Shown here: piece after piece, positions 4,344-30,807 of the stretch
How positions within the stretch are numbered: position 1 is the stretch's first letter
Layout: each line of letters begins with the position of its first letter
DNA from: Candidatus Pacearchaeota archaeon
Lineage (GTDB): Archaea > Nanobdellota > Nanobdellia > Pacearchaeales > GW2011-AR1
Direction of reading: 5' to 3'
DNA length: 39,861 bases
NCBI GenBank assembly: GCA_046705565.1
Contig: JBJKQI010000010.1
Location: 1-39,861 of the forward strand
Notes under the pieces: model-generated
What the model was told of the DNA's origin: nothing
What the model saw: only the letters and a program-made list of their open reading frames with translations
Databases searched by the model: none
Position numbers and translations under genes: made by a program

Positions 4344-4552
4344 GAATATATCTAAAGTATGAAGTGCTTTTGTTGTTTGGAATTTTACTTGCATTGGGAA
4401 CTCTGCTAAAGCTGTTACTGCATCTCAATATTGATTCAGATTGGTTTTGGTTTTTTGCAGGAGTTGCAATTACTGTTGAAGGTGCAATAAATTTATCAAA
4501 ACAAAAACAATTTGACAAAAAATATAAAGTTGTGTTAAGGGATGAAAAGTAA
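4340..4552 (+). CDS. small two-helix membrane protein
   Basis: 70-aa ORF overlapping the previous stop by 4 nt (ATGA), with two hydrophobic segments. No family recognised. Confidence 0.4.
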   Translation: MRIYLKYEVLLLFGILLALGTLLKLLLHLNIDSDWFWFFAGVAITVEGAINLSKQKQFDKKYKVVLRDEK

Positions 4553-4554
4553 AA

Positions 4555-6498: not shown

Positions 6499-6545
6499 AA
6501 AAAGCCGACGAGCGTCGGGTTTAAAAATTTAAGGATTAAAGAAAA

Positions 6546-8120
6546 TTAAGCCCTATCAAAAAACTTCTTGGTTCTTCTTTCCCTTTGAAAAGTTATTACA
6601 AAACGATGAGCTTCATCACGAATTTCTCTCAAGAATAGCAAACCTTTGTCTTTCAAATCAAACCTTAAAATGTTTCCGTCAGGCAAATAAATTTCTTCTT
6701 CTCGTTTTGCTAATGAAATTATTGGAAGTTTAACGTTAATTTCTTCAAGCGCTTTTATAGAGGAGGAAAGTTGTCCGGCTCCCCCATCAATTACAACCAA
6801 ATCAGGCATTGCCTCATTTTCTCTTTTTAGCCTTAAATATCTTCTCTTGACTACTTCATTCATTGCGCGAAAGTCATCGTTACCTGTAAAAGACTTTATT
6901 TTGAATCTTCTGTAATTTGACTTGTCGGGTTTTCCATTTCTAAACTGAACCATTGAAGCCACAACCTCGGTTCCGGAAAGGTGAGAAATGTCAAAACATT
7001 CAACAACAACCGGTGAAAACTGCAAATTAAGAGATTTTTTTAAAGCGTTAACTTTTTCCAAATTTCCAAAGAACTGAATTTCAACATTCTTTTTTACTAA
7101 TTCCAAAAGAGACTTTAAGTCCCCCTTTGCGGGAACTACCCCCTCAACTTTTTTTCCTTTTTTTGAAGAGAGCAATTCAATTAAAGAATCTGAAACCCTC
7201 TCAGGCAAAATTATTTTTTTTGGAATTTTATTTTCATCATAATACTGGATTAAGAATTCTTCAAGGAAGTCTCTTTTAAAATCAAACTCATAAGACCTTT
7301 TATTCTCAAGTATTCCTTTTTTCACGTTAAACAAAATTAAGTAAACTTTCCCGTTTGTTAAAATAAAATTTAATATGTCTTCATCATAAGACTTCATTCT
7401 CTCAACGGTCTGCTTTTCCGATAAGGCCTCCACCGCCTCCACTTCGTTTTTTAGAACAAGCGCTCTTTCATAATCTTGTTTAGAAGAAAATTCTTTCATA
7501 TCCTCTTTTAACTTTTTTAATAGCTCATCATTTTTTCCCTTCAAAATCATTTTTGCTTTCTCAACGCTCTTAAGATAATCCTCTCTTGAAATCTTATTTA
7601 TGCAAGGCGCTGAACAAAGTCCTAAGTCATAGCGGATGCACTTTTTTTTAGGAAGTTTTTTACAAGTTCTTAATTTGAAAGCTTTATTGAGTGTTCCAAT
7701 AATATAATCCCTTGTCTTTCCAGATGGAAAAGGACCGAAAACTTCTGAGTCCACTTTTTTGTTTTTTATCCTCTCAGTCCTTGAAGAAATTAGTCTTGGA
7801 AACTTTTCATTTGTAAGCTCAATTACCGAGTATGATTTAGAGTCCCTTAGATTTATATTATACTTTGGTCTAAACTTTTTTATTAAATTATTTTCTAATA
7901 GTAATGCCTCAACTTCAGAGTTCGTTACAATAAAATCGATGTCTCTTATATGTTTAACAAGCGCTTTTGTTTTTGGATCAAGATCTTTATCAAAAAAATA
8001 ACTTGAAATTCTTCGTTTGAGGTTTTTTGCCTTTCCGACGTAAACTACTTTTTTTGAAGAATCTTTATATAAATAGCATCCCGGGCTTTCTGGAATTTTT
8101 GAAATCTTTGTTGGGTCCAT
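6546..8120 (-). CDS. uvrC: Excinuclease ABC subunit C (UvrC), ending before the usual C-terminal (HhH)2 domain
   Basis: 524 aa with an N-terminal GIY-YIG (GCYLYKD...VVYVGKAKNLKRR), a UVR motif (DYERALVLKNEVEAVEAL) and an endonuclease domain (ECFDISH...DGGAGQL...IRDEAHRF). The ORF stops 17 aa after IRDEAHRF. Confidence 0.92.
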   Translation of the reverse strand: MDPTKISKIPESPGCYLYKDSSKKVVYVGKAKNLKRRISSYFFDKDLDPKTKALVKHIRDIDFIVTNSEVEALLLENNLIKKFRPKYNINLRDSKSYSVIELTNEKFPRLISSRTERIKNKKVDSEVFGPFPSGKTRDYIIGTLNKAFKLRTCKKLPKKKCIRYDLGLCSAPCINKISREDYLKSVEKAKMILKGKNDELLKKLKEDMKEFSSKQDYERALVLKNEVEAVEALSEKQTVERMKSYDEDILNFILTNGKVYLILFNVKKGILENKRSYEFDFKRDFLEEFLIQYYDENKIPKKIILPERVSDSLIELLSSKKGKKVEGVVPAKGDLKSLLELVKKNVEIQFFGNLEKVNALKKSLNLQFSPVVVECFDISHLSGTEVVASMVQFRNGKPDKSNYRRFKIKSFTGNDDFRAMNEVVKRRYLRLKRENEAMPDLVVIDGGAGQLSSSIKALEEINVKLPIISLAKREEEIYLPDGNILRFDLKDKGLLFLREIRDEAHRFVITFQRERRTKKFFDRA

Positions 8121-8158
8121 AATTATAATTAAGAATGAAAGTATAAATTATTTTGGAA

Positions 8159-10951: not shown

Positions 10952-11237
10952 CGAGTAAAATAAAAGAAAAATTGCTTTTAAGGTTTTGTGGAACTAGTGA
11001 GAATTAAATATTTTCTTATTCAAAAAGTTATTCGGTGAGCAACTTTTCTTTTTATGTCCTTGGTCGACTTTGTTCACTTAGGTTCCTTTTGGCAAATTGA
11101 AATTCACATTCCTAACTCTCACTTTTACTTTTTTAATAGGTAAATTTTTTTGAATTTGGATTCGGACAATAATGTTTATTTGTTTTTCTTTGATTTTTTA
11201 GGGCATACAAAGTATGGCAAAAAGGCTAATTTTACCT

Positions 11238-11444
11238 AGTTCGTATAATATATCTTGTACGAACTTTTTGTGTATAAACACAAAATATGCGTTCAGAGAG
11301 GCTAAAAATGGATTTATTCGATGCTTTTTTAGGAGACCTCCCAATTTTATTTTAATTTTTTATTTGATTATAAGAACTTTTTGTGTGTGAAAGTATTACT
11401 TGGGAAATGAGTTACTTTATTTAAAAACTCTTGTGGAGACCCCC
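11238..11444 (+). repeat. Two degenerate tandem modules, TA(C/A)GAACTTTTTGTGT ... GGAGACC(T/C)CC
   Basis: TACGAACTTTTTGTGT at 11258-11273 and TAAGAACTTTTTGTGT at 11371-11386 are 15/16 identical. Each is followed about 50-60 nt later by GGAGACCTCCC (11332-11342) or GGAGACCCCC (11435-11444). AGTTCGTA (11238-11245) is the inverted complement of TACGAACT (11258-11265). Confidence 0.6.
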
Positions 11445-11950
11445 TTTTGATTATGCGAATTATTTCAGTGGTTTAAATTGATTTTTTGCTAGGGGCGTTG
11501 GAAAGAAAAGTATGCACTTATTTTTTCTTAGATTATCCGAATTATTTTAAGGGGTTTGCTTAAAATTTGTTAATTTCTTCAGTAATATCTCATTTTCTAG
11601 AAAATTTTGGTCTATTAGGGGTTATATTTAGCCCCTTTCTATTTGGGTGAAACTTTTACCTTGCTTTTTTGAAATTTATTTTATCTAAAAAAAGACTAAA
11701 AATTGCCTACAAAAGACCCCAAAATTTTTAGAAAACTTTCATTAACTTAGGATACCTTTGTTTAAAAAGGCGAAATTTTAGGTTGTTTAAGTTAATTTTT
11801 ATTAGATTTCACCTTTTATTTTCAAAGCTAAACGGCTGTCCAAACAATACAAACACCCTTTTACCGAATATAATGCTGGCAAATGACACCATTGTTTTAC
11901 GCTTAATTCTTTGGGTGTTGGACGGTGTTTATGATTGTTTAAGCCCGTCC

Positions 11951-11997
11951 AAACAGCTGTTTTTAGTCCATTTTTTATTCCTATGCTGTTTAAACAG
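11951..11997. promoter_or_regulatory. Two perfect 12-bp palindromes upstream of the 12121 gene (candidate operators)
   Basis: AAACAGCTGTTT (11951-11962) and CTGTTTAAACAG (11986-11997). Each is followed by GTCCATTTTT(T)ATT (11966-11979 and 12007-12019). Confidence 0.45.
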
Positions 11998-12120
11998 TTA
12001 TTTTTGGTCCATTTTTATTATTAAAATTGGTCTTGAAGAACCCCTTGAAAAAAGGCAAAAATTACCTTTTTCTCGTCAATAAAAGAAAAAGTTTTTAAAG
12101 CAAACATACCTAAAAATAAT

Positions 12121-12759
12121 ATGTTTGGATTTTTCAAGTCAAAAAACAAAATTGAAGAGGTGCAAAAAGAGACCAAATTTGGTTTTGAGGCAGTTAAAAA
12201 GGATATTTTATCTGTTGGTGAGTGGATTAAACACCTTGATTCTGAAAAAAAAGTTCACAGAAATGAGATAAATGAGATAAAAGAGGATTTATCGTCGCTA
12301 AAAGAAGACTTTGAAGAATTAAAAAATATGGTTTCTGTGGTTGTTGATTTAAACACAAACAGCCGTTTAAACAAGCCGTTTAAAACAGATAAGTGGCTGT
12401 TGAATAAACAAACGCCTGTTTATGATGTTCAAACAGATGTTCAAACAGATGTTCAAACACCAAATTTAAGCAGTTTTTCAGTTACCGAAAGAGCAATTCT
12501 TTTAGTACTCTTAAATACTGACATGAAATTGAGCTATGAGGATCTTGCTGCAATGCTAAATAAAGAAAAATCTACAATAAGGGGTCAAATAAACTCCATA
12601 AAATCGAAAAGTGAGAGCTTAATAGAGGAAATAATAGAGAAAAATGGTAAAAAAAGGATATATGTACCTGAAAAAATGAAAGAAAAGATACTCAAAAAGC
12701 AAAAAGTGAGAGTAAAAGAGTCAAAAAAAGACAATAAAAAGAAGAAAAATGAGAGTTAA
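12121..12759 (+). CDS. Coiled-coil protein with a VQTD repeat and a C-terminal winged-helix-like domain (paralog A)
   Basis: 212 aa with heptad-rich N-terminal half (EINEIKEDLSSLKEDFEELKNMV), VQTDVQTDVQT, then ERAILLVLLNTDMKLSYEDLAAMLNKEKSTIRGQINSIKSK, which looks like a helix-turn-helix, and a lysine-rich tail. Confidence 0.7.
   Translation: MFGFFKSKNKIEEVQKETKFGFEAVKKDILSVGEWIKHLDSEKKVHRNEINEIKEDLSSLKEDFEELKNMVSVVVDLNTNSRLNKPFKTDKWLLNKQTPVYDVQTDVQTDVQTPNLSSFSVTERAILLVLLNTDMKLSYEDLAAMLNKEKSTIRGQINSIKSKSESLIEEIIEKNGKKRIYVPEKMKEKILKKQKVRVKESKKDNKKKKNES
12424..12459 (+). repeat. Perfect tandem repeat (GATGTTCAAACA) x3, in frame
   Basis: Read directly: three identical 12-nt units encoding D-V-Q-T x3 within paralog A. 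Confidence 0.95.
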
Positions 12760-12984
12760 AGACAAAAAAATTAAAAAAAGTCCAAAAGTGAGGCTTCTAT
12801 GCAAGGCATAGGATTCAAAACAGAAGGATTTTTATAAAAAAGTGAGGGATTTTAAGGATTTCCCAAGCTAAAAAAGAAAAAGAGGTAAAAACAAAAGATA
12901 AGTAAAAGCATGCTTTGTCGTCGGGAAAGGAAGGGTTGTGTTAGCTGAAGAAAGAAAGTTATTCGTTGTACAGAATTTCTCTCC

Positions 12985-13016
12985 TTTTTGTTTATTTTGG
13001 AGAAAATAAACAAAAA
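12985..13016 (-). terminator. Perfect 14-bp inverted repeat with a 4-nt loop just downstream of the stop at 13018
   Basis: TTTTTGTTTATTTT (12985-12998), GGAG loop, AAAATAAACAAAAA (13003-13016). The stem is all A/T apart from one G:C pair, with T-runs. It sits in the convergent intergenic region. Confidence 0.4.
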
Positions 13017-13017
13017 T

Positions 13018-13710
13018 CTAGAGACTTACTAGTGTTAAGATCGTATTAAGGGATGCAACCTTTTTAAGAGAAGAAGAAATATTTAACTGAATTTCTTTGT
13101 TGTTTATTTTGTTTTTCTCGACGGGAATTCCTTTAATTATGAGCCTTCTAACATAATCACGAAGGGAGCTTTCAGATAATCCGAGAAGGCCTGAGAGGGT
13201 TTTATAATCCGAATGACCTCTCTCTTCATCGAGCTGATAAATTGCACTGAAAACAGTTATTTCTTGCTTAGTTAACCTTTTGAATTTTAATCTTATCTCT
13301 TTTTTTAACGAATCAAGAGAATCTAAGGTATTTATTGCATCCTGAAAAAGGGTTTCTGGGAGATTCTTGGGGCTTTCTCTATATGAAAAACCCCCTTTTT
13401 GGCTTAAAATGTCTGTTTGTCTGTTTGTCTGTTTGTCTGTCTGAACCCCTTCATTTCCATTGGAAATACCCTCTTTTTGGTCATTTAAAGGCTTAAAAAT
13501 GTGTCTATTTGTCTGAATATTGGGCTCCTGCGTCTGAAAAGATTCCCTTTGTGTGGGGATTTCTTTTTCCTCTATAATTCTCATTCTTTTGTCTAAATTA
13601 TAAAAGGCGTTTCCCATTTCTACAATTAGTTCGTCAAACCTTGAGAGCTCCTCCCTTAATTCATTTATTTCTTCTTTTACCTTCAAGAAAGCTCCTTTTA
13701 TATTATCCAT
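13018..13710 (-). CDS. Coiled-coil protein with a QTD/QTN repeat and a C-terminal winged-helix-like domain (paralog B)
   Basis: Same architecture as 12121..12759: VKEEINELREELSRFDELIVEM, GVQTDKQTNRQTD, then LTKQEITVFSAIYQLDEERGHSDYKTLSGLLGLSESSLRDYVRRLIIKG. I prefer the ATG at 13710 (MDNIKGAF...); the track extends to a GTG at 13761. Confidence 0.7.
   Translation of the reverse strand: MDNIKGAFLKVKEEINELREELSRFDELIVEMGNAFYNLDKRMRIIEEKEIPTQRESFQTQEPNIQTNRHIFKPLNDQKEGISNGNEGVQTDKQTNRQTDILSQKGGFSYRESPKNLPETLFQDAINTLDSLDSLKKEIRLKFKRLTKQEITVFSAIYQLDEERGHSDYKTLSGLLGLSESSLRDYVRRLIIKGIPVEKNKINNKEIQLNISSSLKKVASLNTILTLVSL
13411..13442 (-). repeat. 8-nt tandem repeat (GTCTGTTT) x3 plus one imperfect unit, inside the coding sequence
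   Basis: Read directly: GTCTGTTT GTCTGTTT GTCTGTTT GTCTGTCT. The sense strand reads ...ACAAACAG... The unit length is not a multiple of 3. Confidence 0.95.
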
Positions 13711-13763
13711 AAAAAAAGTAAGTTTATTCACTTTAAAAAAATTAAGATAATTAAAAACCACAA

Positions 13764-14030
13764 TTATTGATATTTTCTGTAAGCTTCATAAGCAGAGGAG
13801 GAAAGAATCCATCGGGACCTTTTTAAGTATTGAATACCCTCTTTATTTTTTTTCACCTCGGAAACTAATCCTTTTTTTAATAGCTCCTTTAGAATGTTTT
13901 TTGTAAATTCTTCATCTCTTGCAATCTCTCTTGAAATGTGTGCCGTAAAAAGGGGTTTTGGGCTAGATTGAAAAAGGAGTGTCAGGATTTGCTCTGAAAT
14001 TTTTTCCCTCTTTTGCTTTGAAATTTTCAT
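13764..14030 (-). CDS. small winged-helix DNA-binding protein
   Basis: 88 aa. ISEQILTLLFQSSPKPLFTAHISREIARDEEFTKNILKELLKKGLV...G...Y has the spacing of a helix-turn-helix plus wing. Directly upstream of paralog B on the same strand. Confidence 0.6.
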   Translation of the reverse strand: MKISKQKREKISEQILTLLFQSSPKPLFTAHISREIARDEEFTKNILKELLKKGLVSEVKKNKEGIQYLKRSRWILSSSAYEAYRKYQ

Positions 14031-14089
14031 TTTAACAAAATAAAAAAGTCATAAAGAATTTAATAAGATTTCTAAACAAGAACAAAGGA

Positions 14090-14503
14090 TTATTCTTTAT
14101 TTGAAGTTAAAGAAGGCATTCTAAAATGAGCTGGCAAACCAAGCTCATCCTCTAGCTGAATTGCCTTTATGTTACATTTTATAAGAATCATATTAAATAT
14201 TTCAACTTTAACGTCTTCGTCAAGCTCTTTTTTCTTCCAATTTTTTATAATTTCTTTTGCTTTTCCTGAATCAACGCCAACAATTAATTTACCCTCAAGA
14301 TCAATCTTTGCAATTTTATCTGAGTAATCAAGGGAATATCCAAAAGAAATAGTTAATGCCTTTTGATTGTCTTCTCCTAGCTTGGCCAAATTTTCTTCAA
14401 TAGATTTTACATTCATAGAAGAATCTATTTTTAATTCAGTAAACTCAGAAACAAACCGCTCTGCACTTATTTTTGTTAATCCAAAACCCAAAAATTTAAT
14501 CAT
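14090..14503 (-). CDS. hypothetical protein with a weak SecB-like sequence pattern
   Basis: 137-aa ORF. The alternating beta-like N-terminal half and the ...IFNMILIKCNIKAIQLEDELGLPAHFRMPSL end loosely recall the SecB chaperone layout. This is by-eye similarity only. Confidence 0.45.
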   Translation of the reverse strand: MIKFLGFGLTKISAERFVSEFTELKIDSSMNVKSIEENLAKLGEDNQKALTISFGYSLDYSDKIAKIDLEGKLIVGVDSGKAKEIIKNWKKKELDEDVKVEIFNMILIKCNIKAIQLEDELGLPAHFRMPSLTSNKE

Positions 14504-14555
14504 GATGTTACCAAAAAAACCTTCTTTTTAAAGATTTGTATAAAATTTAAAAAAA

Positions 14556-14816
14556 TTAGATTAAATCCTCTTCGGAAACAACAACAAAATCCCCAATAGC
14601 GATAATTGCTGAATAGGGAATAAGCAATTCATTTGCACTTGATTTTTCGAGGTTCAAATTTTTTGTATAGATTGTAGAGTCTTTCACAACTAAATTTATT
14701 AGCTCTCCAGATTTCGTTTCAAAAGTAACATCTTTTACAAACCCTAGCCTCTTACCCTCTTTAGTAACAATCATTTTACCCAAAATTACATTAAAAGGTA
14801 TTTTTTCTGTTTGCAT
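14556..14816 (-). CDS. PRC-barrel domain protein
   Basis: 86 aa. ILGKMIVTKEGKRLGFVKDVTFETKSGELINLVV...LIPYSAIIAIGDFVVV fits the PRC-barrel pattern (G..V....G..lG.V.Dv......g.i..l.v....iP...v..ig.d.v.v). Confidence 0.75.
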   Translation of the reverse strand: MQTEKIPFNVILGKMIVTKEGKRLGFVKDVTFETKSGELINLVVKDSTIYTKNLNLEKSSANELLIPYSAIIAIGDFVVVSEEDLI

Positions 14817-15018
14817 GCAATTGTTAAAGATAATTTATTTATAAATTTATCTCTATTTGAAAAGGATTTTTAGAGTTTCTAAAATTAAAAGACAAATTTG
14901 AAGGAAGGTAAATAAATTATTAATCGTATAAATGTTATAACTTAAAAATTAATTAAAAATTATATAAACAAAAGAAGTCTGCTAAGTTCTCCTTGTAGTT
15001 TGAATAAAAAAGGTGTCT

Positions 15019-15049
15019 GGGGTGTGTCACACCTTTATTTCTTTTGGAA
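15019..15049 (-). repeat. ORB-like element 1 (inverted orientation)
   Basis: The reverse complement reads TTCCAAAAGAAATAAAGGTGTGACACACCCC. Its first 21 nt differ from ORB-2 at one position, and it ends in a C-run (a G-string on the other strand). Confidence 0.7.
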
Positions 15050-15214
15050 AATAAAAATTTACTGATTTTTGTTTTTTTGTATTTTTATTTTATTTAAAAA
15101 AATTTATATTATATATTATATATTTATATAATCTTTTTATAATATAATAATAAATTAATAACCTATTTAGAAAGATAAATTTATAGTTTTATATAAACTT
15201 GAACTTATACGTCT
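15050..15214. other. AT-rich candidate duplex-unwinding element
   Basis: I counted 9 G/C in the 120 nt at 15061-15180. It contains TA-rich runs such as ATATTATATATTATATATTTATATAAT. Confidence 0.6.
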
Positions 15215-15240
15215 TTCCATAAGAAATAAAGGTGTATTTC
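15215..15240 (+). repeat. ORB-like element 2
   Basis: TTCCATAAGAAATAAAGGTGTATTTC. Confidence 0.65.
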
Positions 15241-15312
15241 TTTTTTAGTAGTCATAATCTTTTATATACACTTTTCATTTTTTTCCGTTGAGGGTTTCGG
15301 GGACTTCATTTT

Positions 15313-15340
15313 TTCCATAAGAAATAGACGTCTCACCCCC
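15313..15340 (+). repeat. ORB-like element 3
   Basis: TTCCATAAGAAATAGACGTCTCACCCCC. Its first 14 nt are identical to ORB-2, and its C-run resembles that of ORB-1. It ends 22 nt upstream of the orc1 ATG. Confidence 0.7.
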
Positions 15341-15362
15341 TTTAAAATAAAAACAAGAAAAG

Positions 15363-16580
15363 ATGGAAAGCGAACTAGACAAAATTTTTGATTCGTTTGA
15401 TAAGAATAATATCTTCAAAGATAAATCTCTTTTACAATCAAACTATAAACCAGAAAATATTCCCCACAGAGATCATGAGATAAAACAAATTGCTTCTATT
15501 CTTGCGCCGGTCTTAAGGGGTGAAAAGACCAGTAATCTCTTTTTGTACGGAAATACAGGCACGGGCAAAACTCTTTCTATCTTAAAGGTACAAGAAGCTT
15601 TAGAGAAAAGAATGCAGAAAAATGAAAATATTGATTTTGAACTTAGGATTCAATACCTCAATTGTAAATTAAAGCAAGTTGCAGATACTGAATATAGAAT
15701 TCTTGCGGAGATTATACGGCAATTGGGCGGAGAAGTTCCTGCAACGGGGTTACCCACCCAGGCAGTTTATAGTAAGTTTATTGAAATTGTTGAAGAAAAG
15801 AAGCAGCTGGTTGTTCTAATTCTTGATGAAGTAGACCAACTTGTGAATAAAATTTCAAATAATTTTTTATATAATCTTACCAGATTAAACTTCGAATTAT
15901 CCAAGTCACAGATTTCTCTTGTAGGAATTTCAAATGATTTGACTTTTTTAGATAATGTTGATCCACGTGTGAAAAGTTCCCTTTCTGAGGAAGAGATTGT
16001 TTTCTCACCATATAATGCTTTACAAATTCAAGATATTCTCCTTAAGAGGATTGGAGGGGCTTTCAAAGAAGGAGTCTTAGAAGAAGGGGTCGTTTCAAAG
16101 TGTGCGGCTTATGCAGCGAGGGAATCTGGGGACGCGAGACGTGCATTGGATTTATTAAGAGTTGCCGCAGAATTAGCTGAGAGAGAAGGAGCAAAGAAAG
16201 TTAAAGTTGAGCATATAGATAAGGCAAAACAGAAAATCGAGAAAGATAAAATTATAGATGTGATTAGTAATCATCCAAAACAGTTTCAGATGGTCCTTAA
16301 TTCAATTATTTCACTTTATGAAGAGAAAAGAGGGAGCCCTTTTTTTACCGGGGAAGTTTACTTGAATTACCAAAAGGCATGTAATCTTTACAAAGTCGAA
16401 CCTCTTACCCAACGTAGAGTAGGAGACATTATTCAGGAGTTTGATATGCTTGGGATAATAAATGTTCGTGTTATTTCTAAGGGAAGGGGGGGAAGAATGA
16501 GGGAAATACGACTCATACTTCCAGAAGCGGTAATGGAAAAATCTAAAGAAATTTTAACCTCTACATTAAATTATGCTTAA
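15363..16580 (+). CDS. orc1: Orc1/Cdc6 replication initiator
   Basis: 405 aa with AAA+ Walker A (YGNTGTGKT), Walker B (ILDEVD), sensor region (GDARRALDLLRVAAE) and a C-terminal winged helix (TQRRVGDIIQEFDMLGII). Confidence 0.95.
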   Translation: MESELDKIFDSFDKNNIFKDKSLLQSNYKPENIPHRDHEIKQIASILAPVLRGEKTSNLFLYGNTGTGKTLSILKVQEALEKRMQKNENIDFELRIQYLNCKLKQVADTEYRILAEIIRQLGGEVPATGLPTQAVYSKFIEIVEEKKQLVVLILDEVDQLVNKISNNFLYNLTRLNFELSKSQISLVGISNDLTFLDNVDPRVKSSLSEEEIVFSPYNALQIQDILLKRIGGAFKEGVLEEGVVSKCAAYAARESGDARRALDLLRVAAELAEREGAKKVKVEHIDKAKQKIEKDKIIDVISNHPKQFQMVLNSIISLYEEKRGSPFFTGEVYLNYQKACNLYKVEPLTQRRVGDIIQEFDMLGIINVRVISKGRGGRMREIRLILPEAVMEKSKEILTSTLNYA

Positions 16581-16591
16581 TTTATTTCAAG

Positions 16592-18187
16592 ATGACACAA
16601 GAAGAACTGCAAAATCTCTGTTTGAAGAAAGATCTCCTGTTAGATGGAACTCTACTTGAACTTTTTTCGTCCTTTGACAACCCCAACCTTGCTGCACTAC
16701 TTCTCGAGAGAATAAAATTTTTTCTTGGGAAAAATTTTCTAACACTTTCTTTACTGAGAAACAATGAAAAGCGGGTTAAAGAAATAATTGATGAGGTTTC
16801 TATTGCTCAAAATTTTAACAAAGAAGAAATAAACAAAAAACTTAATCTTTTTGGGGGGAAAACTAATTCTTTTAGGTTGGAGAGGGAAAATCCAAGGCCA
16901 ATTGAGAGGGGGCCCAAGGTAAAAGTTGTCTCTTCTCCCCAGACTCCCTCAAAAAAATTGGAAGTTAAGGACTTTGTTATTCATTTTAGAAAAAGATATG
17001 AATTCTACAAGGGAGTTCTTGAAGGAAGTTCTTTACTTGAAAACCTCGTCTCTATTAATAAAATTTCTAATGATAAACAAAAGTTTTCTGTAATTGGAAT
17101 TGTAACTGAAAAAAGAGTGACTAAGAATAAAAATATAATCTTGGATATTGAGGATCTTACAGGCAAGATGAAAGTATTAATCAGTGCTTCGAAAGAAAAC
17201 CTTGTAGAAGAAGCGGATGATATTGTCTTAGACTCTGTAATTGGATTTAAAGGGATGGGAAATAATGAGATTCTCTTCGTAAATGAATTAGTTTTTCCCG
17301 AGGCAAATTTGCCCGAGAGAAAAAAATCAGATGTTGAAGAGTACGCACTTTTTATTGGGGATATGCATTATGGGAGTAAACGGTTCTTGAAAAAGGACTT
17401 CTCCAGATTTATTGATTACCTGAATGGAAAAGTTCCTGGGACCCCGGAAGTTAAGAAAATAAAATATCTTTTCATTGTGGGGGACATGGTGACCGGCATT
17501 GGAAATTACCCCAACCAGGAGCCTGATTTAATGACTGTTAATTTAGAGGAACAATTTAGTGAGATCGCCCAAATTCTTGGAACAATAAGAAAGGATATTC
17601 AAATAATAATTTCTCCTGGGAATCACGATTGTGTTCGGTTGATGGAACCTCAACCTCTCCTTGATGAAAAATATGCTTGGCCTCTTTATGAGTTAGAAAA
17701 TGTTACAATAACTGGCAACCCGGCGATGATAAAAATAGGAGAGTCGAAAACATTCGATGGGTTCAATATTCTAACTTATCATGGTTTTTCTTTTCCATAT
17801 TATGCTAACGCCGTTCCAAAATTAATTGCGGATAAGGCAATGAATCAACCGGAGAAGATTATGAAATTTTTGCTTAAACACCGGCATTTGGCTCCCACAC
17901 ACACCTCAACTCAATATTTTCCTCTTGAAAAAGATGGACTCTTAATCAGGGAAATTCCAGATATTTTTGTTTCCGGGCATACTCACAAAAGTGGGCTCGC
18001 ATATTTTAATAATATTCTTGTTATTTCTGTCTCGAGTTGGGAAGGGTTTAGCTCTTATCAGGAGAAATTTGGTAACAAGCCGGATCATTGCAAAGTGCCA
18101 ATGTTGAATTTGAAAACAAGACAAGTTAAAATCCTTGATTTTGAAACGGGTGAAGATGGTGTACGGCTTTATAGGGAGGATGAATAA
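16592..18187 (+). CDS. polB: DNA polymerase II (PolD) small subunit DP1
   Basis: 531 aa with an OB-fold region followed by calcineurin-like phosphoesterase motifs (GDMHYGS, GDMV, GNHD, GHTH). Stop and next start overlap as TAATG. Confidence 0.93.
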   Translation: MTQEELQNLCLKKDLLLDGTLLELFSSFDNPNLAALLLERIKFFLGKNFLTLSLLRNNEKRVKEIIDEVSIAQNFNKEEINKKLNLFGGKTNSFRLERENPRPIERGPKVKVVSSPQTPSKKLEVKDFVIHFRKRYEFYKGVLEGSSLLENLVSINKISNDKQKFSVIGIVTEKRVTKNKNIILDIEDLTGKMKVLISASKENLVEEADDIVLDSVIGFKGMGNNEILFVNELVFPEANLPERKKSDVEEYALFIGDMHYGSKRFLKKDFSRFIDYLNGKVPGTPEVKKIKYLFIVGDMVTGIGNYPNQEPDLMTVNLEEQFSEIAQILGTIRKDIQIIISPGNHDCVRLMEPQPLLDEKYAWPLYELENVTITGNPAMIKIGESKTFDGFNILTYHGFSFPYYANAVPKLIADKAMNQPEKIMKFLLKHRHLAPTHTSTQYFPLEKDGLLIREIPDIFVSGHTHKSGLAYFNNILVISVSSWEGFSSYQEKFGNKPDHCKVPMLNLKTRQVKILDFETGEDGVRLYREDE

Positions 18188-21100
18188 TGGAGACTCAGGA
18201 ATATTTTAAAAATTTTAAGTCCGAAGTTGATAAAATTTATGCAGTTGCAAATGAGGCAAGAAAAAAAGGGTTTGATCCTGTTAGAGAAGTTGAAATTCCC
18301 CTTGCCCTTAGTATGGCTGAAAAAGTTGTTGGTTTAATTTCTACAGTTTACCCTCAGATGATGAATTCTGGGATTTCTGAGAGAATAACAGAATTAGAAA
18401 AAGAATATGGGAAGCTTGACCCAACGGTAGTTTTTAAGATTGCAGATGAAATTTCTAACCAAAAGTTTTGTCAATTCAAGGATGTTTTGGAGGCAATGGA
18501 TGCAGGAATTCGAGTGGGAATAGCATATTTAACTTTGGGGGTTGTTTCCAGCCCGATTGAAGGATATACAGGAATTGAAGTCGGAAAAACAAGGGATAAA
18601 AAAGAGTATATTATTGCAAACTTTTCAGGACCAATTCGTTCAGCAGGAACTACTGCTTCATGTATGGCTTTAGTTTTAATTGATTTTATGAGAGAAAAAT
18701 TTGGTTATGCAAGGTATGACCCGACGGAAAAAGAGATAAGAAGAGTTTTTTCGGAACTCTCCGACTTTCATGATAGAATTGCAAATTTGCAGTATATGCC
18801 AACTGAAGAGGAAGCTGTCTTTCTTGCAAAAAATTTGCCTATTCAGGTTGCAGGAGATCCGTCGGAGAAAATGGAAGTTTCAAATTATAAAAATCTTGAG
18901 AGGGTTAATACAAACAATCTTCGAAGTGGAGTTTGCCTTGTTCTTGGAGAGGGCCTTGCACAGAAGGCGGCAAAAGGGTTTAGGCTCCTTAATCAGGCGA
19001 AGAAAAATGGTATAAAATCTACAGGTTTTGACTGGCTTAAAGAGTATATAGAACTTCATGAAAAAAGAACTCTCGGAAAAGACAAAAAAAGTGGACCTGC
19101 TACATACATAAAAGATTTGGTTGCAGGTCGTCCTGTTTATGGGCATCCGGCCCGTTCGGGGGGTTTTAGATTTAGGTATGGTCGTGGAAGATCTTCAGGT
19201 TTCAGTGCAGTTTCAGTCCACCCCGCAACGATGGGGATAACAGACGATTTTCTTGCGATGGGAACTCAACTCAAAATCGAAAAGCCAACAAAAGGGTGCA
19301 CGGTCACAACTTGTGACGAAGTCGACGGTCCAATCGTCAAATTAAAAAATGGGAGTGTTGTTAAACCAGATTCTTTAAAGAAAGCAAGGGATATCTACAA
19401 AGATATTGAAGAAATAATCTATCTAGGAGACATGCTTTTTCCATTTTCTGATGTCTTAAATAGAAATTCTCAATTAATTAAACCGGGTTATGTAGAGGAA
19501 TGGTGGAATCTTGATTTGAAAGAGAAGGGATTCAACGGAAAAATGAATTATTATGGTGTGCCTTTTGAAGAAGCCGTTAAAATAAGTCAGCAATATAAAG
19601 TTCCTCTTCATCCTCAATACATCTTTTATTGGACACAAATTTCAAGAGGAGAATTTTTTGGATTTATTAATTGGATTAGACATGCAAATGTTGATGGCGA
19701 AATAACTTTGCCTTGGACAAAAAAAGATAGGGAAGTTTTTTCTATTGGGAAGCGTGCTCTTGAACTTTTGGGGGTGGTTCATTTGGTTTCAATTGAAAGT
19801 GTTGTGATTGACAAAAAGACGAGTGAAGCTCTTTTGTTTAATTTAGGACTCAATGTTAATAATTTTCCAAAAGATAAAATTAAATTGAATGGCCTGGAAA
19901 TAAAATATCCAAAAGAATCTCCTTTAGAAATTGTGAATCTTTTGTCTTCAGTTATTATTAAAGACAAGGCCGGTGAATTTATTGGAACAAGGATGGGCAG
20001 ACCTGAAAAGGCTAAAGTTAGAAAACTAACCGGCAGCCCAAATGTTTTGTTTCCCGTCGGTGAAGAGGGGGGAAGACTTAGAAGTGTAGGTGCTGCGTGC
20101 GAGGCGGGTTTTGTTAAGAGCAGCTTTCCAATGTATTTTTGTGAAAATTGTGATAGGGAAACAATTTATAGAACCTGTGAAGTTTGTTTAAATAAAACAA
20201 AAAAGAGATATTATTTCACAGATATAAAAGAAAAAGCTTATGAGAAAAAAATAGAATATTCTTCGCGTGAAGGAATTTCTTATTGTACCCAAAAACTTGA
20301 TGTGAATCATTATTTTAATATTGAAAAAGAGAGGTTAGGTATGATTAAAGATGAGATGCCCCCCTTAATAAAAGGTATTAGAGGGATGAGCTCCGAAGAA
20401 AAAACCCCCGAACTTTTATCAAAAGGTATCTTAAGGGCAAAATACGGATTACAGGTAAATAAGGACGGAACTATAAGAATGGATGGAACTGAGTTGCCGT
20501 TAGTTTCATTTAAACCAAAAGAAATTGAAGTTAGTGTTAAAAAATTAAAAGAGCTCGGTTATGATAAGGATGTTTATGGAAAAGAACTTGAGAGAGATGA
20601 TCAAATATTGGAGCTTATGCCCCACGATGTTTTAATTCCCAGCTCTCCCGAAACCCCTGACGAAGATGGGGCTGACGTTTTTATAAAGATATGTAATTTT
20701 GTTGATGATGAGCTTACAAAAATTTATGGATTAAATTCTTATTATAATGTAAAAACAAAGGAGGACCTTGTGGGAACTTTAGGGGTTTGTATGGCCCCCC
20801 ACAATTGTGCCGGTGTCGCATGTAGATTTATCGGTTTTTCAAAAGCTCTGGGAATTGTTGCAAGTCCTTATATGCATGCAGCAATTAGACGTGATTGTGA
20901 TGGGGATGAAGCTGCAATAATGCTTTTGGGGGATGTATTAATTAATTTTTCAAGAAAGTTTTTGCCAAGTCATAGGGGAGGAAATCAGGATGCCCCCTTA
21001 GTTTTAAATTCCAAAATAGATGCAGGAGAGGTTGATGACCAGATCCTGGACTTTGAGGCAGTTTGGGAGTATCCTCATGAACTTTATAAATTGGCTGAGG

Positions 21101-21645
21101 AAGGAGTTCACTCTTCAAAAGTTGTTTTACCGACGGTAAGAAGTCTACTAAAAGAGGGAAAAGACCCTTTCAGAGATTTAGGGTTTACGCATGACACTAA
21201 AGACATAAATGAAGGAGTTCTTTGTTCTTCGTATAAGCTTCTTGAAAATATGGTTGAAAAAGTCGGTCATCAAATGAAACTTGCTGAAAAATTGAGAGCT
21301 GTTGACACTTCTGACACAGCCCGTCTTGTGATTGACAGACATTTCATAAGAGATTTAAGAGGTAACCTAAGGAAATTTTCGCAACAGGAATTTCGGTGTG
21401 TCAAATGCAATGAGATTCTTCGTCGGGTGCCTCTCTCTGGGAAGTGTCCGGTTTGCGGCGGGAAATTAATTTTTACAATTAATGAAGGCGGAATAAAAAA
21501 ATATCTTGAGCCTGCACTTAATCTTGCAAAACAGTATAATTTGAGCATGTATATGCAACAAAATCTTGCTCTAATTAAAGGATATATTGACAGCATCTTT
21601 GGACGTGAACTTGAAAAGCAAGAAAAATTGGGACAATGGTTTTAG
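18187..21645 (+). CDS. polC: DNA polymerase II (PolD) large subunit DP2
   Basis: 1152 aa with conserved DP2 blocks (GRPEKA, RRDCDGDE) and Cys clusters (CENCDRE...CEVC and CVKCNE...CPVCGG). The length fits an intein-free DP2. Confidence 0.95.
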   Translation: METQEYFKNFKSEVDKIYAVANEARKKGFDPVREVEIPLALSMAEKVVGLISTVYPQMMNSGISERITELEKEYGKLDPTVVFKIADEISNQKFCQFKDVLEAMDAGIRVGIAYLTLGVVSSPIEGYTGIEVGKTRDKKEYIIANFSGPIRSAGTTASCMALVLIDFMREKFGYARYDPTEKEIRRVFSELSDFHDRIANLQYMPTEEEAVFLAKNLPIQVAGDPSEKMEVSNYKNLERVNTNNLRSGVCLVLGEGLAQKAAKGFRLLNQAKKNGIKSTGFDWLKEYIELHEKRTLGKDKKSGPATYIKDLVAGRPVYGHPARSGGFRFRYGRGRSSGFSAVSVHPATMGITDDFLAMGTQLKIEKPTKGCTVTTCDEVDGPIVKLKNGSVVKPDSLKKARDIYKDIEEIIYLGDMLFPFSDVLNRNSQLIKPGYVEEWWNLDLKEKGFNGKMNYYGVPFEEAVKISQQYKVPLHPQYIFYWTQISRGEFFGFINWIRHANVDGEITLPWTKKDREVFSIGKRALELLGVVHLVSIESVVIDKKTSEALLFNLGLNVNNFPKDKIKLNGLEIKYPKESPLEIVNLLSSVIIKDKAGEFIGTRMGRPEKAKVRKLTGSPNVLFPVGEEGGRLRSVGAACEAGFVKSSFPMYFCENCDRETIYRTCEVCLNKTKKRYYFTDIKEKAYEKKIEYSSREGISYCTQKLDVNHYFNIEKERLGMIKDEMPPLIKGIRGMSSEEKTPELLSKGILRAKYGLQVNKDGTIRMDGTELPLVSFKPKEIEVSVKKLKELGYDKDVYGKELERDDQILELMPHDVLIPSSPETPDEDGADVFIKICNFVDDELTKIYGLNSYYNVKTKEDLVGTLGVCMAPHNCAGVACRFIGFSKALGIVASPYMHAAIRRDCDGDEAAIMLLGDVLINFSRKFLPSHRGGNQDAPLVLNSKIDAGEVDDQILDFEAVWEYPHELYKLAEEGVHSSKVVLPTVRSLLKEGKDPFRDLGFTHDTKDINEGVLCSSYKLLENMVEKVGHQMKLAEKLRAVDTSDTARLVIDRHFIRDLRGNLRKFSQQEFRCVKCNEILRRVPLSGKCPVCGGKLIFTINEGGIKKYLEPALNLAKQYNLSMYMQQNLALIKGYIDSIFGRELEKQEKLGQWF

Positions 21646-26356: not shown

Positions 26357-26389
26357 AAAATATTAAATCTATTAAATTTTATAAGCTTG

Positions 26390-26935
26390 ATGGGGAAAAG
26401 ATTAGAAAAAAGTTTTTTTGAAAGGCGTGCGGACGTTGTCGCAAAAGACTTGATTGGGAAAATTCTTGTTAGAAAAGTTGGAAAGAAATTTCTTAAGGGC
26501 ATGATTACAGAGGCTGAAGCTTATTTTGGTGAAAAAGATCCTGCTTCATGGGCGAGGTTCGGCAAAAGAAAAGATAATTTTTATATGTGGGGTAAACCAG
26601 GAACTGTTCTTATAAAAAATGTTCACAAACATTTGATGCTTAATTTTGTTACCGGAAAAATTGGAAATGCACAGGCCATTTTAGTTCGTGCAGTTCGACC
26701 TATTAATTTTGTGGGGCGCACTGGCGGGCCCGGGCTTTTGACTTCGAGGTTCTTAATCTTAAGAGAGTTTAATGGGAAAAGTATTTATTCTTGCAAAGAT
26801 CTTTGGATTGAAGAAAATGAGGAACATTATAAAATAAAAAAAAGTGGCAGAATTGGAGTAAGAAATGATTTAAAAAAACACTTGAGGTTCTATGTTGAAG
26901 ATGATGAAAAAAGAATTAATAAAAAGGATAACTGA
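26390..26935 (+). CDS. mpg: DNA-3-methyladenine glycosylase, Mpg/AAG family
   Basis: FFERRADVVAKDLIGKILVRK...GMITEAEAYFGEKDPASWA...GKPGTVLI...LNFVTG..G.AQAILVRAVRP matches the methylpurine glycosylase pattern. I prefer the ATG at 26390 over the TTG at 26387. Confidence 0.85.
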   Translation: MGKRLEKSFFERRADVVAKDLIGKILVRKVGKKFLKGMITEAEAYFGEKDPASWARFGKRKDNFYMWGKPGTVLIKNVHKHLMLNFVTGKIGNAQAILVRAVRPINFVGRTGGPGLLTSRFLILREFNGKSIYSCKDLWIEENEEHYKIKKSGRIGVRNDLKKHLRFYVEDDEKRINKKDN

Positions 26936-27978: not shown

Positions 27979-29208
27979 TTAATCTTTCAAGTATTTTCTT
28001 TTTATAATTCCCACAAACTCGCTTGAATTTTTTCCTAAAATTGTTTTCAGATTTTTTTCGGGAGTGGAAAAAATCTTTTTTAATGTTTCAAATTTTTCTA
28101 AGAGTCTTTTTGCTTTTGTTGGTCCAATTCCCGGGAATCCTTCAAGAATAAACTGCAATTCCTCGTTGGGGGAGAGGTTCTTTTTCTTTGGATTTATTGA
28201 GGTTTCTTTTGTCTTTTTGTTTGCAATCAATTTTATGTACTGAGCTGTTTCTTCAGGACCCTTTGTGAAAATGATAGGGATATTATAATTAAGGGTTATT
28301 GAAAGTAAAAGTCCCTTTAGTGCATTTGGGTGCAAGGAGTTTTTTCCAGACAAGTCTCCTTCAACAATAAGAAGCTTTTTTTCATATTGGTTTAATTCTT
28401 TAAGTTGTGAAAAAATCCTTTTATCAAAAACAGATGCAAAAAAATCCGGTGCAGTCTTTCTTTCGATTGCAGTATCTTTCACAATATAATCTGCCACCTT
28501 TAATTCCTTAAATTCAACTGTTAAGTTTTGTCTTATTAATTCAGACGGAACAAGGGAATTTTTCTCACGAAAATCCACTTCAACGATCTCATTCGGCTTT
28601 TCCGAGGGAGCTTTTTCTTTTTGAAATATGTCATACATATTATTTGAAAAGGTCTTTTGTTTAAATTTTTTTATGTTTTTGAGTACTGTTAAAATAATTT
28701 CGACGACATCATTTGGCTGGATATTCGTTGTATCAATTACAAGATTATAGTTTGTCTTATCCATGAATGAAATCCCATATGCTTTTTTGAATCCTTCGTC
28801 AGTATCTCTTAGTCTCCTTTTTATTTGTTCCCTTGTTTCTTTTTCACTTTTTGGAATGGGTTCATCTGGGCGGTTTGTTTTTCTTATTCTCCCAACCGTG
28901 CTTTTTTCCTTCGCATGAAGGAAAATTTTGAAGGATTTTGGGATGAAGTAATAAGCAATCCAGGCTTCAATAACAAAGTCTTTTTCTGTTTTTCCTATTT
29001 CAATTGTCTTTTTGTCTGCTTCATAATGGATTCTTGAATCTGTTTTAGCGAGTTCCATCAATTTATTTATTGTAATCCCCATTTCTTTTGCAACCAAGCC
29101 GTGAATTTCACCCATAGATAAAAATGGGATTTTGAGCTTCTCTGAAATAATCCTCGCAGCAGTAGTTTTTCCAGAACCAGGCAATCCCGAGATTGTTATT
29201 TTAGTCAT
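27979..29208 (-). CDS. Fusion protein: archaeal-type cytidylate kinase-like P-loop domain + ERCC4 (XPF/Hef) nuclease + HhH
   Basis: The first ~185 aa (ITISGLPGSGKTT...FLSMGEI...YNLVIDTT...) follow the archaeal Cmk layout. The C-terminal half has the ERCC4 signature (VDFRE...VADYIV...AIERKTAPDF...LLIVEG) and HhH (FPGIGPTKAKRLLEKF). It is one uninterrupted 409-aa ORF. Confidence 0.8.
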   Translation of the reverse strand: MTKITISGLPGSGKTTAARIISEKLKIPFLSMGEIHGLVAKEMGITINKLMELAKTDSRIHYEADKKTIEIGKTEKDFVIEAWIAYYFIPKSFKIFLHAKEKSTVGRIRKTNRPDEPIPKSEKETREQIKRRLRDTDEGFKKAYGISFMDKTNYNLVIDTTNIQPNDVVEIILTVLKNIKKFKQKTFSNNMYDIFQKEKAPSEKPNEIVEVDFREKNSLVPSELIRQNLTVEFKELKVADYIVKDTAIERKTAPDFFASVFDKRIFSQLKELNQYEKKLLIVEGDLSGKNSLHPNALKGLLLSITLNYNIPIIFTKGPEETAQYIKLIANKKTKETSINPKKKNLSPNEELQFILEGFPGIGPTKAKRLLEKFETLKKIFSTPEKNLKTILGKNSSEFVGIIKRKYLKD

Positions 29209-29250
29209 GTAAAATCAGAGAAAATTTTATTTAATAAAGATTTAGCGAAT

Positions 29251-30807
29251 TTAAAATAATGTTTTTTGCTGAGGCTCTCTTTTGTATAAATTCCCATTGT
29301 TTAGATCTCTTTTTATTTTCTCAATTGAAGTTTTCATCTTTTTTTCACGAGAGCGTGAGGCGTAATATGCAAATTCATCTTTTGTTTTTTCTGTGATTAA
29401 GATTATTAATTTTCCTTTGGCAAGCCTTGCAGTTCTTCCTCTCCTCTGAATTGAACGAATTGCCGAAGAGACCGGTTCGTAGAAAATTACAGAATCCACT
29501 TCTGGAATGTCAAGACCTTCTTCAGCTATGGATGTTGCACATATAACATTTATTGTTCCTTCTGAAAATTCATCGATAATTATCTTTTGCTCCTTTTGGG
29601 AGAGCCCTTTTCCTTCTTTTTTTGCCTGTCCGACAAAAACTTTTGAATTAATCCCTGACAATTTGTTTATGTTCCTTGAGATTAAGTCGGCAGTTTCTCT
29701 AAATTGTGTGAAAATAATAATTTTTGGATTTGTTTTTTCCTTTTTCTCATCTCTTACAACTCTGATTATCTCTTCAACTTTTGGGTGCTCGAATCCTCTT
29801 TCAAGAAGGCTATTTGTTTTTTTGTAAAGAACAAAAAAATCTTCCCTTGCTGCAAGTTTTACAACCCCCCGTGATTTTCCTTTATTGGCTTCATCAAAAA
29901 TCTTCTTTAGATATTTCTGAAAGCTTGCGAGTGTTTGGGTTTCTAGAAGGTCAAGTGCATGAGAAAGTTTTATTGCCTGGGCAACAAGAGAAACTGCATG
30001 GTAACTTGATGGTGCAGTTAAATTTCTTGAAATTTGATTGCCTAATTTTCTTTGCAGTTCAATTAAGTTTATTTTATTCGCAGGACCAAAAAGGAAATTT
30101 TTGAGTTTAAGTTCATCTACATATTCTTCATAAATCTTTTTTAGAATTTCTCTTAATTCAATTATCTCTTTTGGGAGTACAACAATTTTCTTATCAAACT
30201 CCAACTCCTGGAGATAACTCTTTACATCCGGGGAATCTCTTGTTCTTAATTCAACTTCCTCAATGAAGAGGTTTTTGCATATTTCTTTTATTTTACCCGA
30301 GTCACTTCCCGGGGAGGCTGTGAGCCCAATTAACCGTGGGTGAGTGGAATCTTCCATGTATTTTTTTGCAAGGTAGTTATAGTCATAATTTCTTACACAC
30401 CTGTGGGCTTCATCCTCAATTAATAAGCACACTTCGTTTAAATTGTACAAATTTTTTTTGACATCATTTGCAACACATTGGGGGGTTGAGAAAATTATAT
30501 CTGCCGTATCCCAAATTTTTTTCCTTTTTGTTGAGTTCACTGCGCCTGTGAAAAGCTCAAGAGAACCAAAGAGCTCGGGAAGGCTTTTTCTAAATGAATT
30601 TAAATGTTGTTCTGCCAAAGGTTTTGTGGGGGCAAGAAAAAGCACTTTTTCCCCAGGAAATTTTTTCATTCTCTCAATTGTGAGCATTAGCGCAATTAGC
30701 GTTTTTCCAAGGCCTGTTGGGAGGACTACTAAACAATTCTTTTTAGTGCAAGTTTCAAAAATCTCTTTCTGATATTTTCTTGGTGTTATATTCTGTAAAA
30801 ATTCCAT
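29251..30807 (-). CDS. hef: Hef/FANCM/Mph1-type SF2 helicase, helicase part only
   Basis: 518 aa with PRKYQ, LPTGLGKT, EDEAHR, LTASPG, an inserted helical domain, and QRRGRTAR. The ORF ends with no nuclease domain. Confidence 0.88.
   Translation of the reverse strand: MEFLQNITPRKYQKEIFETCTKKNCLVVLPTGLGKTLIALMLTIERMKKFPGEKVLFLAPTKPLAEQHLNSFRKSLPELFGSLELFTGAVNSTKRKKIWDTADIIFSTPQCVANDVKKNLYNLNEVCLLIEDEAHRCVRNYDYNYLAKKYMEDSTHPRLIGLTASPGSDSGKIKEICKNLFIEEVELRTRDSPDVKSYLQELEFDKKIVVLPKEIIELREILKKIYEEYVDELKLKNFLFGPANKINLIELQRKLGNQISRNLTAPSSYHAVSLVAQAIKLSHALDLLETQTLASFQKYLKKIFDEANKGKSRGVVKLAAREDFFVLYKKTNSLLERGFEHPKVEEIIRVVRDEKKEKTNPKIIIFTQFRETADLISRNINKLSGINSKVFVGQAKKEGKGLSQKEQKIIIDEFSEGTINVICATSIAEEGLDIPEVDSVIFYEPVSSAIRSIQRRGRTARLAKGKLIILITEKTKDEFAYYASRSREKKMKTSIEKIKRDLNNGNLYKREPQQKTLF

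Follow-up and report, generated by a model that had tools for sequence, protein, structure and literature searches.

A stretch of 39,861 nucleotides (nt) from a Candidatus Pacearchaeota archaeon (GenBank assembly GCA_046705565.1, contig JBJKQI010000010.1), referred to here as the window, carries the repair enzyme Hef in two pieces, one of which is joined to a second enzyme. The Hef helicase and the Hef nuclease are encoded by neighbouring genes, and an archaeal-type (d)CMP kinase (cmk) is fused to the N-terminus of the nuclease, which consists of an ERCC4 domain and a (HhH)2 domain. The gene fusion is genuine and has been conserved by vertical descent within a narrow clade of uncultivated DPANN archaea with tiny genomes, labelled as Pacearchaeota or Nanoarchaeota. 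It is the arrangement that is new, not the components or their chemistry: no description of a cmk-Hef, cmk-ERCC4 or cmk-XPF fusion, or of a split Hef in DPANN archaea, was found in the searchable literature, in agreement with a preliminary description of this DNA, which knew of no kinase-XPF/Hef nuclease fusion. The preferred reading, with a probability of about 0.6, is that translationally coupled operon neighbours have fused to give a bifunctional protein in which the kinase and the nuclease are autonomous.

Anatomy of the split hef locus

Two neighbouring open reading frames (ORFs) on the minus strand are read directly from the sequence, one of 518 amino acids (aa) at 29251-30807 and one of 409 aa at 27979-29208. 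The first encodes the helicase and is the first gene of the split hef cassette; its stop codon (29251-29253) is separated from the start of the fusion by an AT-rich spacer of 42 nt (29209-29250, minus strand). This is the layout given in the preliminary description, and all of the motif strings quoted there are present in the translations. Within the spacer, some -30 to -20 relative to the ATG of the fusion, lies TTTATTAAATA, a putative TATA-like sequence in a genome of 34% GC, where such strings are common.

The 518-aa protein is a stand-alone superfamily 2 (SF2) helicase of the Hef type. It matches positions 14-518 of the 781 positions of the NCBIfam Hef model NF010337 with 567 bits (566.9), and its Pfam domains are DEAD, ResIII, RNA_helicase_helical (E 2e-10) and Helicase_C, so that the SF2 core with the Hef-specific helical insert is present. 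The best match in the PDB is 1wp9, the helicase of Pyrococcus furiosus Hef (E 1e-118). The single polypeptide of Hef is interrupted by the stop codon and the 42-nt gap, and neither ORF reaches the whole-protein cutoff of NF010337 at 610 bits (566.9 bits for the helicase and 187.7 bits for the fusion). The proposal that Hef is split in this locus holds, and helicase and nuclease are kept on two ORFs in more than 20 related loci. Euryarchaeal Hef (P. furiosus, Thermococcus kodakarensis; NF010337; PDB 1wp9, 1j22-1j25, 1x2i) has in common with the window system the helicase with its Hef-type helical insert, the ERCC4 domain with ERKx3D and the C-terminal (HhH)2 domain, and P. furiosus Hef is the best PDB match for both halves. 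The euryarchaeal enzyme is one polypeptide, however, whereas the window has two genes and a cmk module at the N-terminus of the nuclease half.

The 409-aa ORF encodes four parts, all on the minus strand. An archaeal-type (d)CMP kinase module (aa 1-178, 28675-29208), with the P-loop G8-LPGSGKT15 at 29164-29187, is followed by an inter-domain linker (aa 179-207, 28588-28674), an ERCC4 nuclease domain (aa 208-335, 28204-28587), with the catalytic motif A239-D-Y...E249-R-K-x3-D255 at 28444-28494, and a (HhH)2 domain (aa 347-409, 27982-28170), which includes FPGIGPTKAKRLLEKF. Mapping with domain profiles, which the preliminary description had proposed as a check, assigned the first ORF to the Hef type and the second to Cytidylate_kin2/TIGR02173, ERCC4 and HHH_5.

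The nuclease half

The C-terminal half of the fusion contains the D...ERKx3D nuclease and the C-terminal (HhH)2 domain of Hef. The ERCC4 profile of Pfam matches aa 211-326 (E 2.5e-25) and HHH_5 matches aa 355-390 (29.5 bits), the (HhH)2 assignment being further supported by the alignment with PDB 2bgw and by model helices at residues 347-403. The signature A239-D240-Y241 ... E249-R250-K251-x3-D255 is intact and conserved in all fused homologs, as expected from the earlier assignment of ERCC4 and HhH motifs to this half. The closest structure is PDB 1j22, the nuclease of P. furiosus Hef (E 2e-28; Foldseek TM-score 0.86, root-mean-square deviation 1.6 Å), and Aeropyrum pernix XPF, 2bgw, also matches (E 2e-25), aligned through residue 201. 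The crenarchaeal short XPF proteins (A. pernix 2bgw/2bhn, Sulfolobus solfataricus; NF040956) likewise combine ERCC4 and (HhH)2 without a helicase on the chain and are among the top Foldseek matches. The window protein scores 113.9 bits against the 300-bit cutoff of NF040956, though, and differs from this group in having a Hef helicase encoded alongside and a kinase fused to the nuclease.

A single-chain AlphaFold2 model of the fusion, built from an alignment of 135 sequences, has a mean predicted local distance difference test (pLDDT) score of 92.6 and a predicted template modelling (pTM) score of 0.54, and residues 183-199 of the linker fall below a pLDDT of 50. In the model, each of the two domains is predicted with confidence, a disordered tether connects them, and no contact between the two is confident.

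The kinase module

The N-terminal module of the second gene is a true P-loop kinase of the cmk family fused to the ERCC4-(HhH)2 nuclease, as had been claimed from its layout. Cytidylate_kin2 matches aa 4-161 (E 7e-19), and the archaeal (d)CMP kinase model TIGR02173 matches aa 3-176 with 99.7 bits for the full protein and 100.8 bits for the isolated domain, marginally below the equivalog cutoff of 102.1 bits. Stand-alone relatives from the same cassette score 108-114 bits with this model, the fused homolog P0007 scores 107.9 and the fused P0004 scores 96.1. The P-loop pattern GxxGxGK[TS] is present, and the module retains all 11 residues that do not vary among 120 stand-alone relatives (G8, G11, G13, K14, G33, D65, R107, R113, E116, R132 and Y144). 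Fold matches found with Foldseek are 3hdt and 3fdi, which are of the Cytidylate_kin2 type, and two CMP kinases, 7l4a and 3akc. The top PDB match by sequence, 4cvn (E 6e-5), raised Fap7/AK6 as an identity, which was rejected, as PRK03839 gives 39.7 bits against a cutoff of 152. Length, P-loop and family-invariant residues are thus shared with archaeal (d)CMP kinases (TIGR02173/Cytidylate_kin2), from which the window module differs in its fusion to a nuclease, its score under the cutoff and the presence of H36, W83 and G139 at positions where arginine is common.

Position 36 is H in the window and in P0002 and R in 114 of the 120 stand-alone relatives (95%); the unfused P0146 also has H. R36 belongs to an S-x-G-D-L-R motif, which we take, from general knowledge of nucleoside monophosphate (NMP) kinases, to be the NMP site. 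At positions 83 and 139 many relatives carry R, and N51, G54 and W59 of the window kinase also deviate from residues conserved at 93% or more. W83 is nonetheless found in 51 of the 120 stand-alone relatives, and the complete window-type signature occurs in the unfused P0146 and P0175, so R36H/R83W/R139G must be older than the fusion or independent of it. Decay of the kinase into a pseudokinase after fusion, through these three substitutions, was rejected for this reason. The residue changes leave real doubt about substrate or activity but do not count as evidence of decay driven by the fusion.

Within the stand-alone family itself (P0121-P0240), the arginine of the E-G-R motif at aa 83 is dimorphic (R in 69 of 120, W in 51 of 120), and a correlated D61H/R139Q/Y140F subtype also exists. 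The cmk family of the window is common in bacteria of the candidate phyla radiation (CPR)/Patescibacteria (Uhrbacteria, Magasanikbacteria), with 35-43% identity to the DPANN proteins (L022, L025, L028-L033, L037-L039, L045-L047, L068 and others), which suggests transfer of the family between DPANN archaea and CPR bacteria. The kinase subtype of the window (GDIHGE...EGWIAY...(Q/E)GF) is also fused to an unrelated C-terminal domain of 150-180 aa, beginning FYLAHPT or FYFGHPT, in P0263 (338 aa) and P0265 (367 aa). A resemblance of that domain to nucleoside deoxyribosyltransferase or DNPH1 was considered and dropped, there being no Pfam or PDB match.

No second cmk homolog was seen in the 40-kb window, and none was found for four representative genomes with the fusion, each of which appears once among the best 80 genome matches. 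These results speak weakly for the fused gene being the sole cmk of its genome.

Conservation of the fusion

Homologs were sought in 5.8 billion protein clusters and, separately, by scanning species-representative genomes. Fused proteins, at least 12 of them and diverged (40-65% identity), turned up in independent assemblies with the same synteny. From the protein clusters came full-length fused homologs with identities of 52-64% (P0002-P0010) and 40% (P0014), and the genome scan added L012 and confirmed L013, L014 and L040. The sources of P0002-P0010, P0014 and L012 are assemblies of NCBI, JGI, ENA and Logan; P0002 is present on 8 contigs and P0007 on 15. MAGs with fused genes include GCA_002794195.1 and GCA_024654565.1. 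The helicase is followed by the fusion in L001-L005, L012-L014 and L040, and the synteny common to fused loci runs from a PRC-barrel protein and a 208-aa protein through helicase and fusion to an M16 peptidase, an FmrO-like methyltransferase and a DRG GTPase. In an exhaustive library clustered at 50% identity (1.84 billion representatives), only P0004 spans both halves, indicating that the architecture is confined to one narrow clade. Matches of odd length in that search were examined as possible further nuclease fusions and turned out to be truncated canonical Hef proteins. The public names of the fused proteins cover only one half, for example 'cytidylate kinase family protein', 'ERCC4 domain-containing protein' or 'AAA family ATPase'; for the proteins of the window itself, no public name is on record.

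The linker peptide K-N-I-x-x-F-K-Q/H-K...MYDIF is in frame and homologous across the fused proteins, so that the reading frame of the window is authentic and free of homopolymer error. A sequencing or assembly error, such as a homopolymer indel that merges two separate genes, has to be considered for junction DNA rich in A/T homopolymers (with runs at about 28640-28680), the more so as one relative, L010, is one base away from the fused frame: its cmk and nuclease are apart only by one extra base in an A7T8 run (within 4550-4590), the removal of which restores a 414-aa fused ORF with a typical linker. For the window, such an artefact is extremely improbable, since the in-frame linker KNIKKFKQKTFSNN-MYDIF has homologous counterparts in at least 10 further fused proteins, which stem from unrelated projects and assemblers, and both alternative frames run into immediate stop codons. 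The frame difference in L010 may reflect fission that took place recently, variation within the population or an error of assembly. The search among relatives, which the preliminary description had proposed as a check, has led to a conserved fusion whose junction is not unique to one assembly.

Origin of the fusion

Related loci contain each of the other arrangements. A canonical single-ORF Hef is present at 6370-8688 of L086, an Iainarchaeal locus. In L006 and L008, the helicase is followed directly by a nuclease of 224-226 aa, with a 4-nt overlap and no cmk at the locus. A separate cmk of 176-189 aa, for which the preliminary description had proposed to search related genomes, stands between helicase and nuclease in L007, L009, L011, L015-L019, L024, L048, L076 and others, and its stop codon often overlaps the start of the nuclease by 8-11 nt (L009, L011). 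The fused state is found in the window and about 11 other loci. The closest stand-alone nucleases start with MYDIFSK, corresponding to M192-F196 of the fusion (28621-28635, minus strand), so the junction consists of the cmk, about 12 read-through residues and the original methionine of the nuclease, now internal. In L004/5 the junction is different, and the domains are joined without the MYDIF segment.

A stepwise origin is proposed from these arrangements. A Hef of the euryarchaeal type would first have been divided at its PCNA-interacting peptide (PIP) motif, leaving one gene for the helicase and one for the ERCC4-(HhH)2 nuclease; the archaeal-type (d)CMP kinase gene of the genome would then have come between them, resulting in a tight helicase-cmk-nuclease cassette in which stop and start codons overlap; and loss of the cmk stop codon, or a change of frame, would have placed a read-through linker of about 12 aa ahead of the original methionine of the nuclease. 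The preliminary description had the kinase occupying the place of the helicase-nuclease linker of a single-polypeptide Hef. This does not stand, as the relatives with separate genes point to a cmk that began as an independent gene inside an already split hef operon and was fused to the nuclease afterwards, and as the PIP-type motif of the Hef linker is still there, divided between the helicase's C-terminus and the nuclease's N-terminus.

At least two junction types exist and the fusion boundary is labile. In the helicase tree, L004/5 lies outside a single tight clade that contains the fused loci, with the separate loci L009-L011 nested among them, whereas in the kinase tree the fused proteins are scattered over about five places, with the window and P0002 on long branches. 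The similarities of kinase halves and of nuclease halves are incongruent (r = 0.39), and the kinase half evolves faster (identity 0.53 vs 0.68). P0010 and P0004, for example, have nuclease halves that are 0.81 identical and nearly identical linkers, while their kinase halves are 0.48 identical and of different subtypes. Such incongruence suggests that the kinase module has been exchanged within the locus, inside the fused gene. A single fusion event was considered against the scattered kinase tree and was not adopted; the helicase tree and the shared linker favour few events, together with module exchange and fission. All trees were constructed by neighbour-joining only, and no firm number of fusion events is therefore given beyond the at least two junction types.

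Other genes of nucleotide metabolism have also come to lie in the slot that separates hef helicase from nuclease, a dCMP/cytidine deaminase in L007 (5440-5940, opposite strand) and an IMPDH/GMP-reductase-like gene in L004/L005 (4959-5999 in L004).

Partition of the putative PCNA-interaction motif

The helicase of the window ends in ...EPQQKTLF, of which Q513-Q-K-T-L-F518 (29254-29271, minus strand) resembles a remnant of a PIP-box. Helicases of split loci end in Q-[KRE]-x-L-F; 13 of the 24 split-locus helicase ORFs end in LF with a Q three residues before the L, and most of the others are truncated at Q-x-x-L. A second PIP-like motif, h-x-[DN]-I-F-S-K, is found at the N-terminus of 103 of the 109 stand-alone nucleases, the remaining 6 having IFxIF variants; its distance to the D[YF]RE that follows is 15-18 aa. 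In the fusion this copy (MYDIF) is situated in the disordered linker between kinase and nuclease. In L086, where Hef is unsplit, QTTLDSF precedes DQRE of the nuclease by 16 aa, and the conserved QQKTLF and MYDIF remnants are positionally homologous to it. The agreement between helicase C-termini, nuclease N-termini and the motif spacing in L086 indicates that Hef was split at the PIP-box, leaving a PIP-like peptide on both products, and both halves of Hef may dock on PCNA through these putative peptides.

Thermoplasma acidophilum Hef is a helicase-only protein that binds PCNA via a C-terminal QxxIxxF (PMC4838364). The window helicase is similar to it in being a stand-alone Hef helicase of about 510 aa that ends in a Q-containing PIP-like peptide, although this peptide is the shorter Q-x-x-L-F, and although the T. 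acidophilum protein is described without a nuclease domain while the window keeps the nuclease half in the same operon. The known examples of crenarchaeal short XPF are PCNA-dependent (PMC2836553). On inspection, the C-terminus of the fusion (...IIKRKYLKD) lacks a Qxxhxxaa pattern and thus the PIP-box that crenarchaeal XPF has at its C-terminus; the PIP-like motif of the window is N-terminal to the nuclease rather than C-terminal.

Function of the fused protein

Under the preferred reading of two autonomous enzymes, the N-terminal NMP kinase would phosphorylate (d)CMP with ATP, and the C-terminal structure-specific nuclease would dimerise via ERCC4 and (HhH)2 and cut fork or flap DNA. The separate helicase would work with the nuclease, probably with both on PCNA through QQKTLF at the helicase C-terminus and MYDIF in the fusion linker. 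Kinase and nuclease activity are both predicted from sequence, and the independence of the two modules is suggested by the disordered linker, the low pTM and the incongruent histories of the halves. Several points weigh against autonomy or against a working kinase. The cassette is kept in more than 20 species-level loci and has fused more than once, which can also be read as selection for physical coupling, and other nucleotide-metabolism genes have entered the same slot (L007 and L004, as above). CMP kinase activity is not assured, because the score lies just under the equivalog cutoff and H36, W83 and G139 are present. The absence of another cmk was checked only within the window and among the best 80 genome matches, and a single-chain model whose alignment includes only about 12 fused sequences is of little use for detecting an interface between domains or at the level of a dimer.

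A functional coupling, in which the kinase is integral to the split-Hef machine, is unlikely but merits discussion. The kinase module could bring (d)CMP kinase activity to PCNA-bound repair sites, link dNTP salvage to fork repair in salvage-dependent organisms, or gate the nuclease allosterically through its occupancy by ATP or NMP. The conservation of the three-gene cassette, with at least two junction types, is in favour of coupling, as are the persistence of the fused architecture and linker despite exchange of the kinase subtype, the further nucleotide-metabolism genes inserted at the same position in L007 and L004, and the PIP-like motif that directly adjoins the kinase. Nevertheless, no packing between the domains is predicted, the close relatives L009 and L011 have separate genes, and the locus lacks a cmk in L006 and L008. 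There is also no obvious substrate channel from nuclease to kinase, because ERCC4 nucleases cut endonucleolytically and release no mononucleotides. The ATP sensing and the coupling to fork processing that the preliminary description had raised have accordingly gained no positive support, the model being one of independent domains on a disordered linker and fused and unfused states alternating among close relatives.

It is doubtful, too, that the P-loop module of the window subclade no longer phosphorylates CMP and serves as an ATP-binding or structural appendage, or acts on another substrate. The H at position 36, the loss of arginine at 83 and 139, the deviations at N51, G54 and W59, the TIGR02173 score, the faster evolution of the kinase half and the long kinase-tree branches of the window and P0002 are all consistent with an altered enzyme. 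Yet the unfused P0146 and P0175 carry the same substitutions, and W83 is found in 51 of 120 stand-alone members that are presumably the working cmk of their genomes; the strictly invariant residues, including K14, D65, R107, R113, E116, R132 and Y144, are kept; and no other cmk was detected nearby in the window. The earlier idea of a repurposed P-loop is thus weakly supported by the residue changes and undercut by their presence in unfused relatives. A still less probable alternative is that two products are made, with the internal Met192 serving as a start, by initiation of transcription or translation, for a free nuclease besides the fusion. M192 is kept in all fused proteins except L004/5, TTTAAA lies 22-27 nt upstream of it, and the nucleases of relatives start exactly at this position; the methionine could, however, be retained as the hydrophobic position of h-x-D-I-F, and TATA-like strings are common at 34% GC.

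Genomic context

The window is a replication and repair neighbourhood, with genes for UvrB, UvrC, UvrA, Orc1/Cdc6, both subunits of PolD (DP1 and DP2) and a methylpurine-DNA glycosylase. A cluster of bacterial-type UvrB, UvrC and UvrA is located at 4555-10951 of this DPANN contig (Pfam). Since bacterial-type UvrABC is present, and given what is established about the roles of Hef, work on stalled forks together with the helicase is a likelier task for the ERCC4 nuclease than excision repair. At about 11-15.3 kb, an AT-rich stretch with a GC of 0.27-0.30 is found directly upstream of Orc1/Cdc6 (15363-16580), PolD DP1 (16592-18187) and DP2 (18187-21645), and the region within 11000-21645 is a candidate replication origin region. 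The methylpurine-DNA glycosylase gene (26387-26935) is situated between the DRG GTPase and the FmrO-like methyltransferase and is not at that position in L001-L008; its 3' end overlaps the predicted start of the next ORF by 44 nt.

Implications

Unsplit Hef, split Hef, split Hef with an inserted cmk and the fusion together form a natural stepwise series of the disassembly and rebuilding of a repair enzyme. The position of the split, at the PCNA-interaction motif, suggests a testable model in which PCNA reunites the halves. As the public names cover one half only, metabolic or repair reconstructions of these DPANN genomes may miss the cmk or the Hef nuclease. If the kinase is functionally coupled, it would provide an unusual direct link from nucleotide metabolism to fork repair. 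A more specific version, which must be regarded as quite improbable at present, is that the cmk module functions within a Hef machine of three pieces organised by PCNA, with the halves, each of which keeps part of the ancestral PIP-box, reassembling on the PCNA ring and the kinase, tethered beside the PIP motif of the nuclease, supplying (d)CDP locally or switching fork cleavage by nucleotide sensing. If so, nucleotide supply in salvage-dependent ultrasmall archaea would be physically linked to replication-fork repair.

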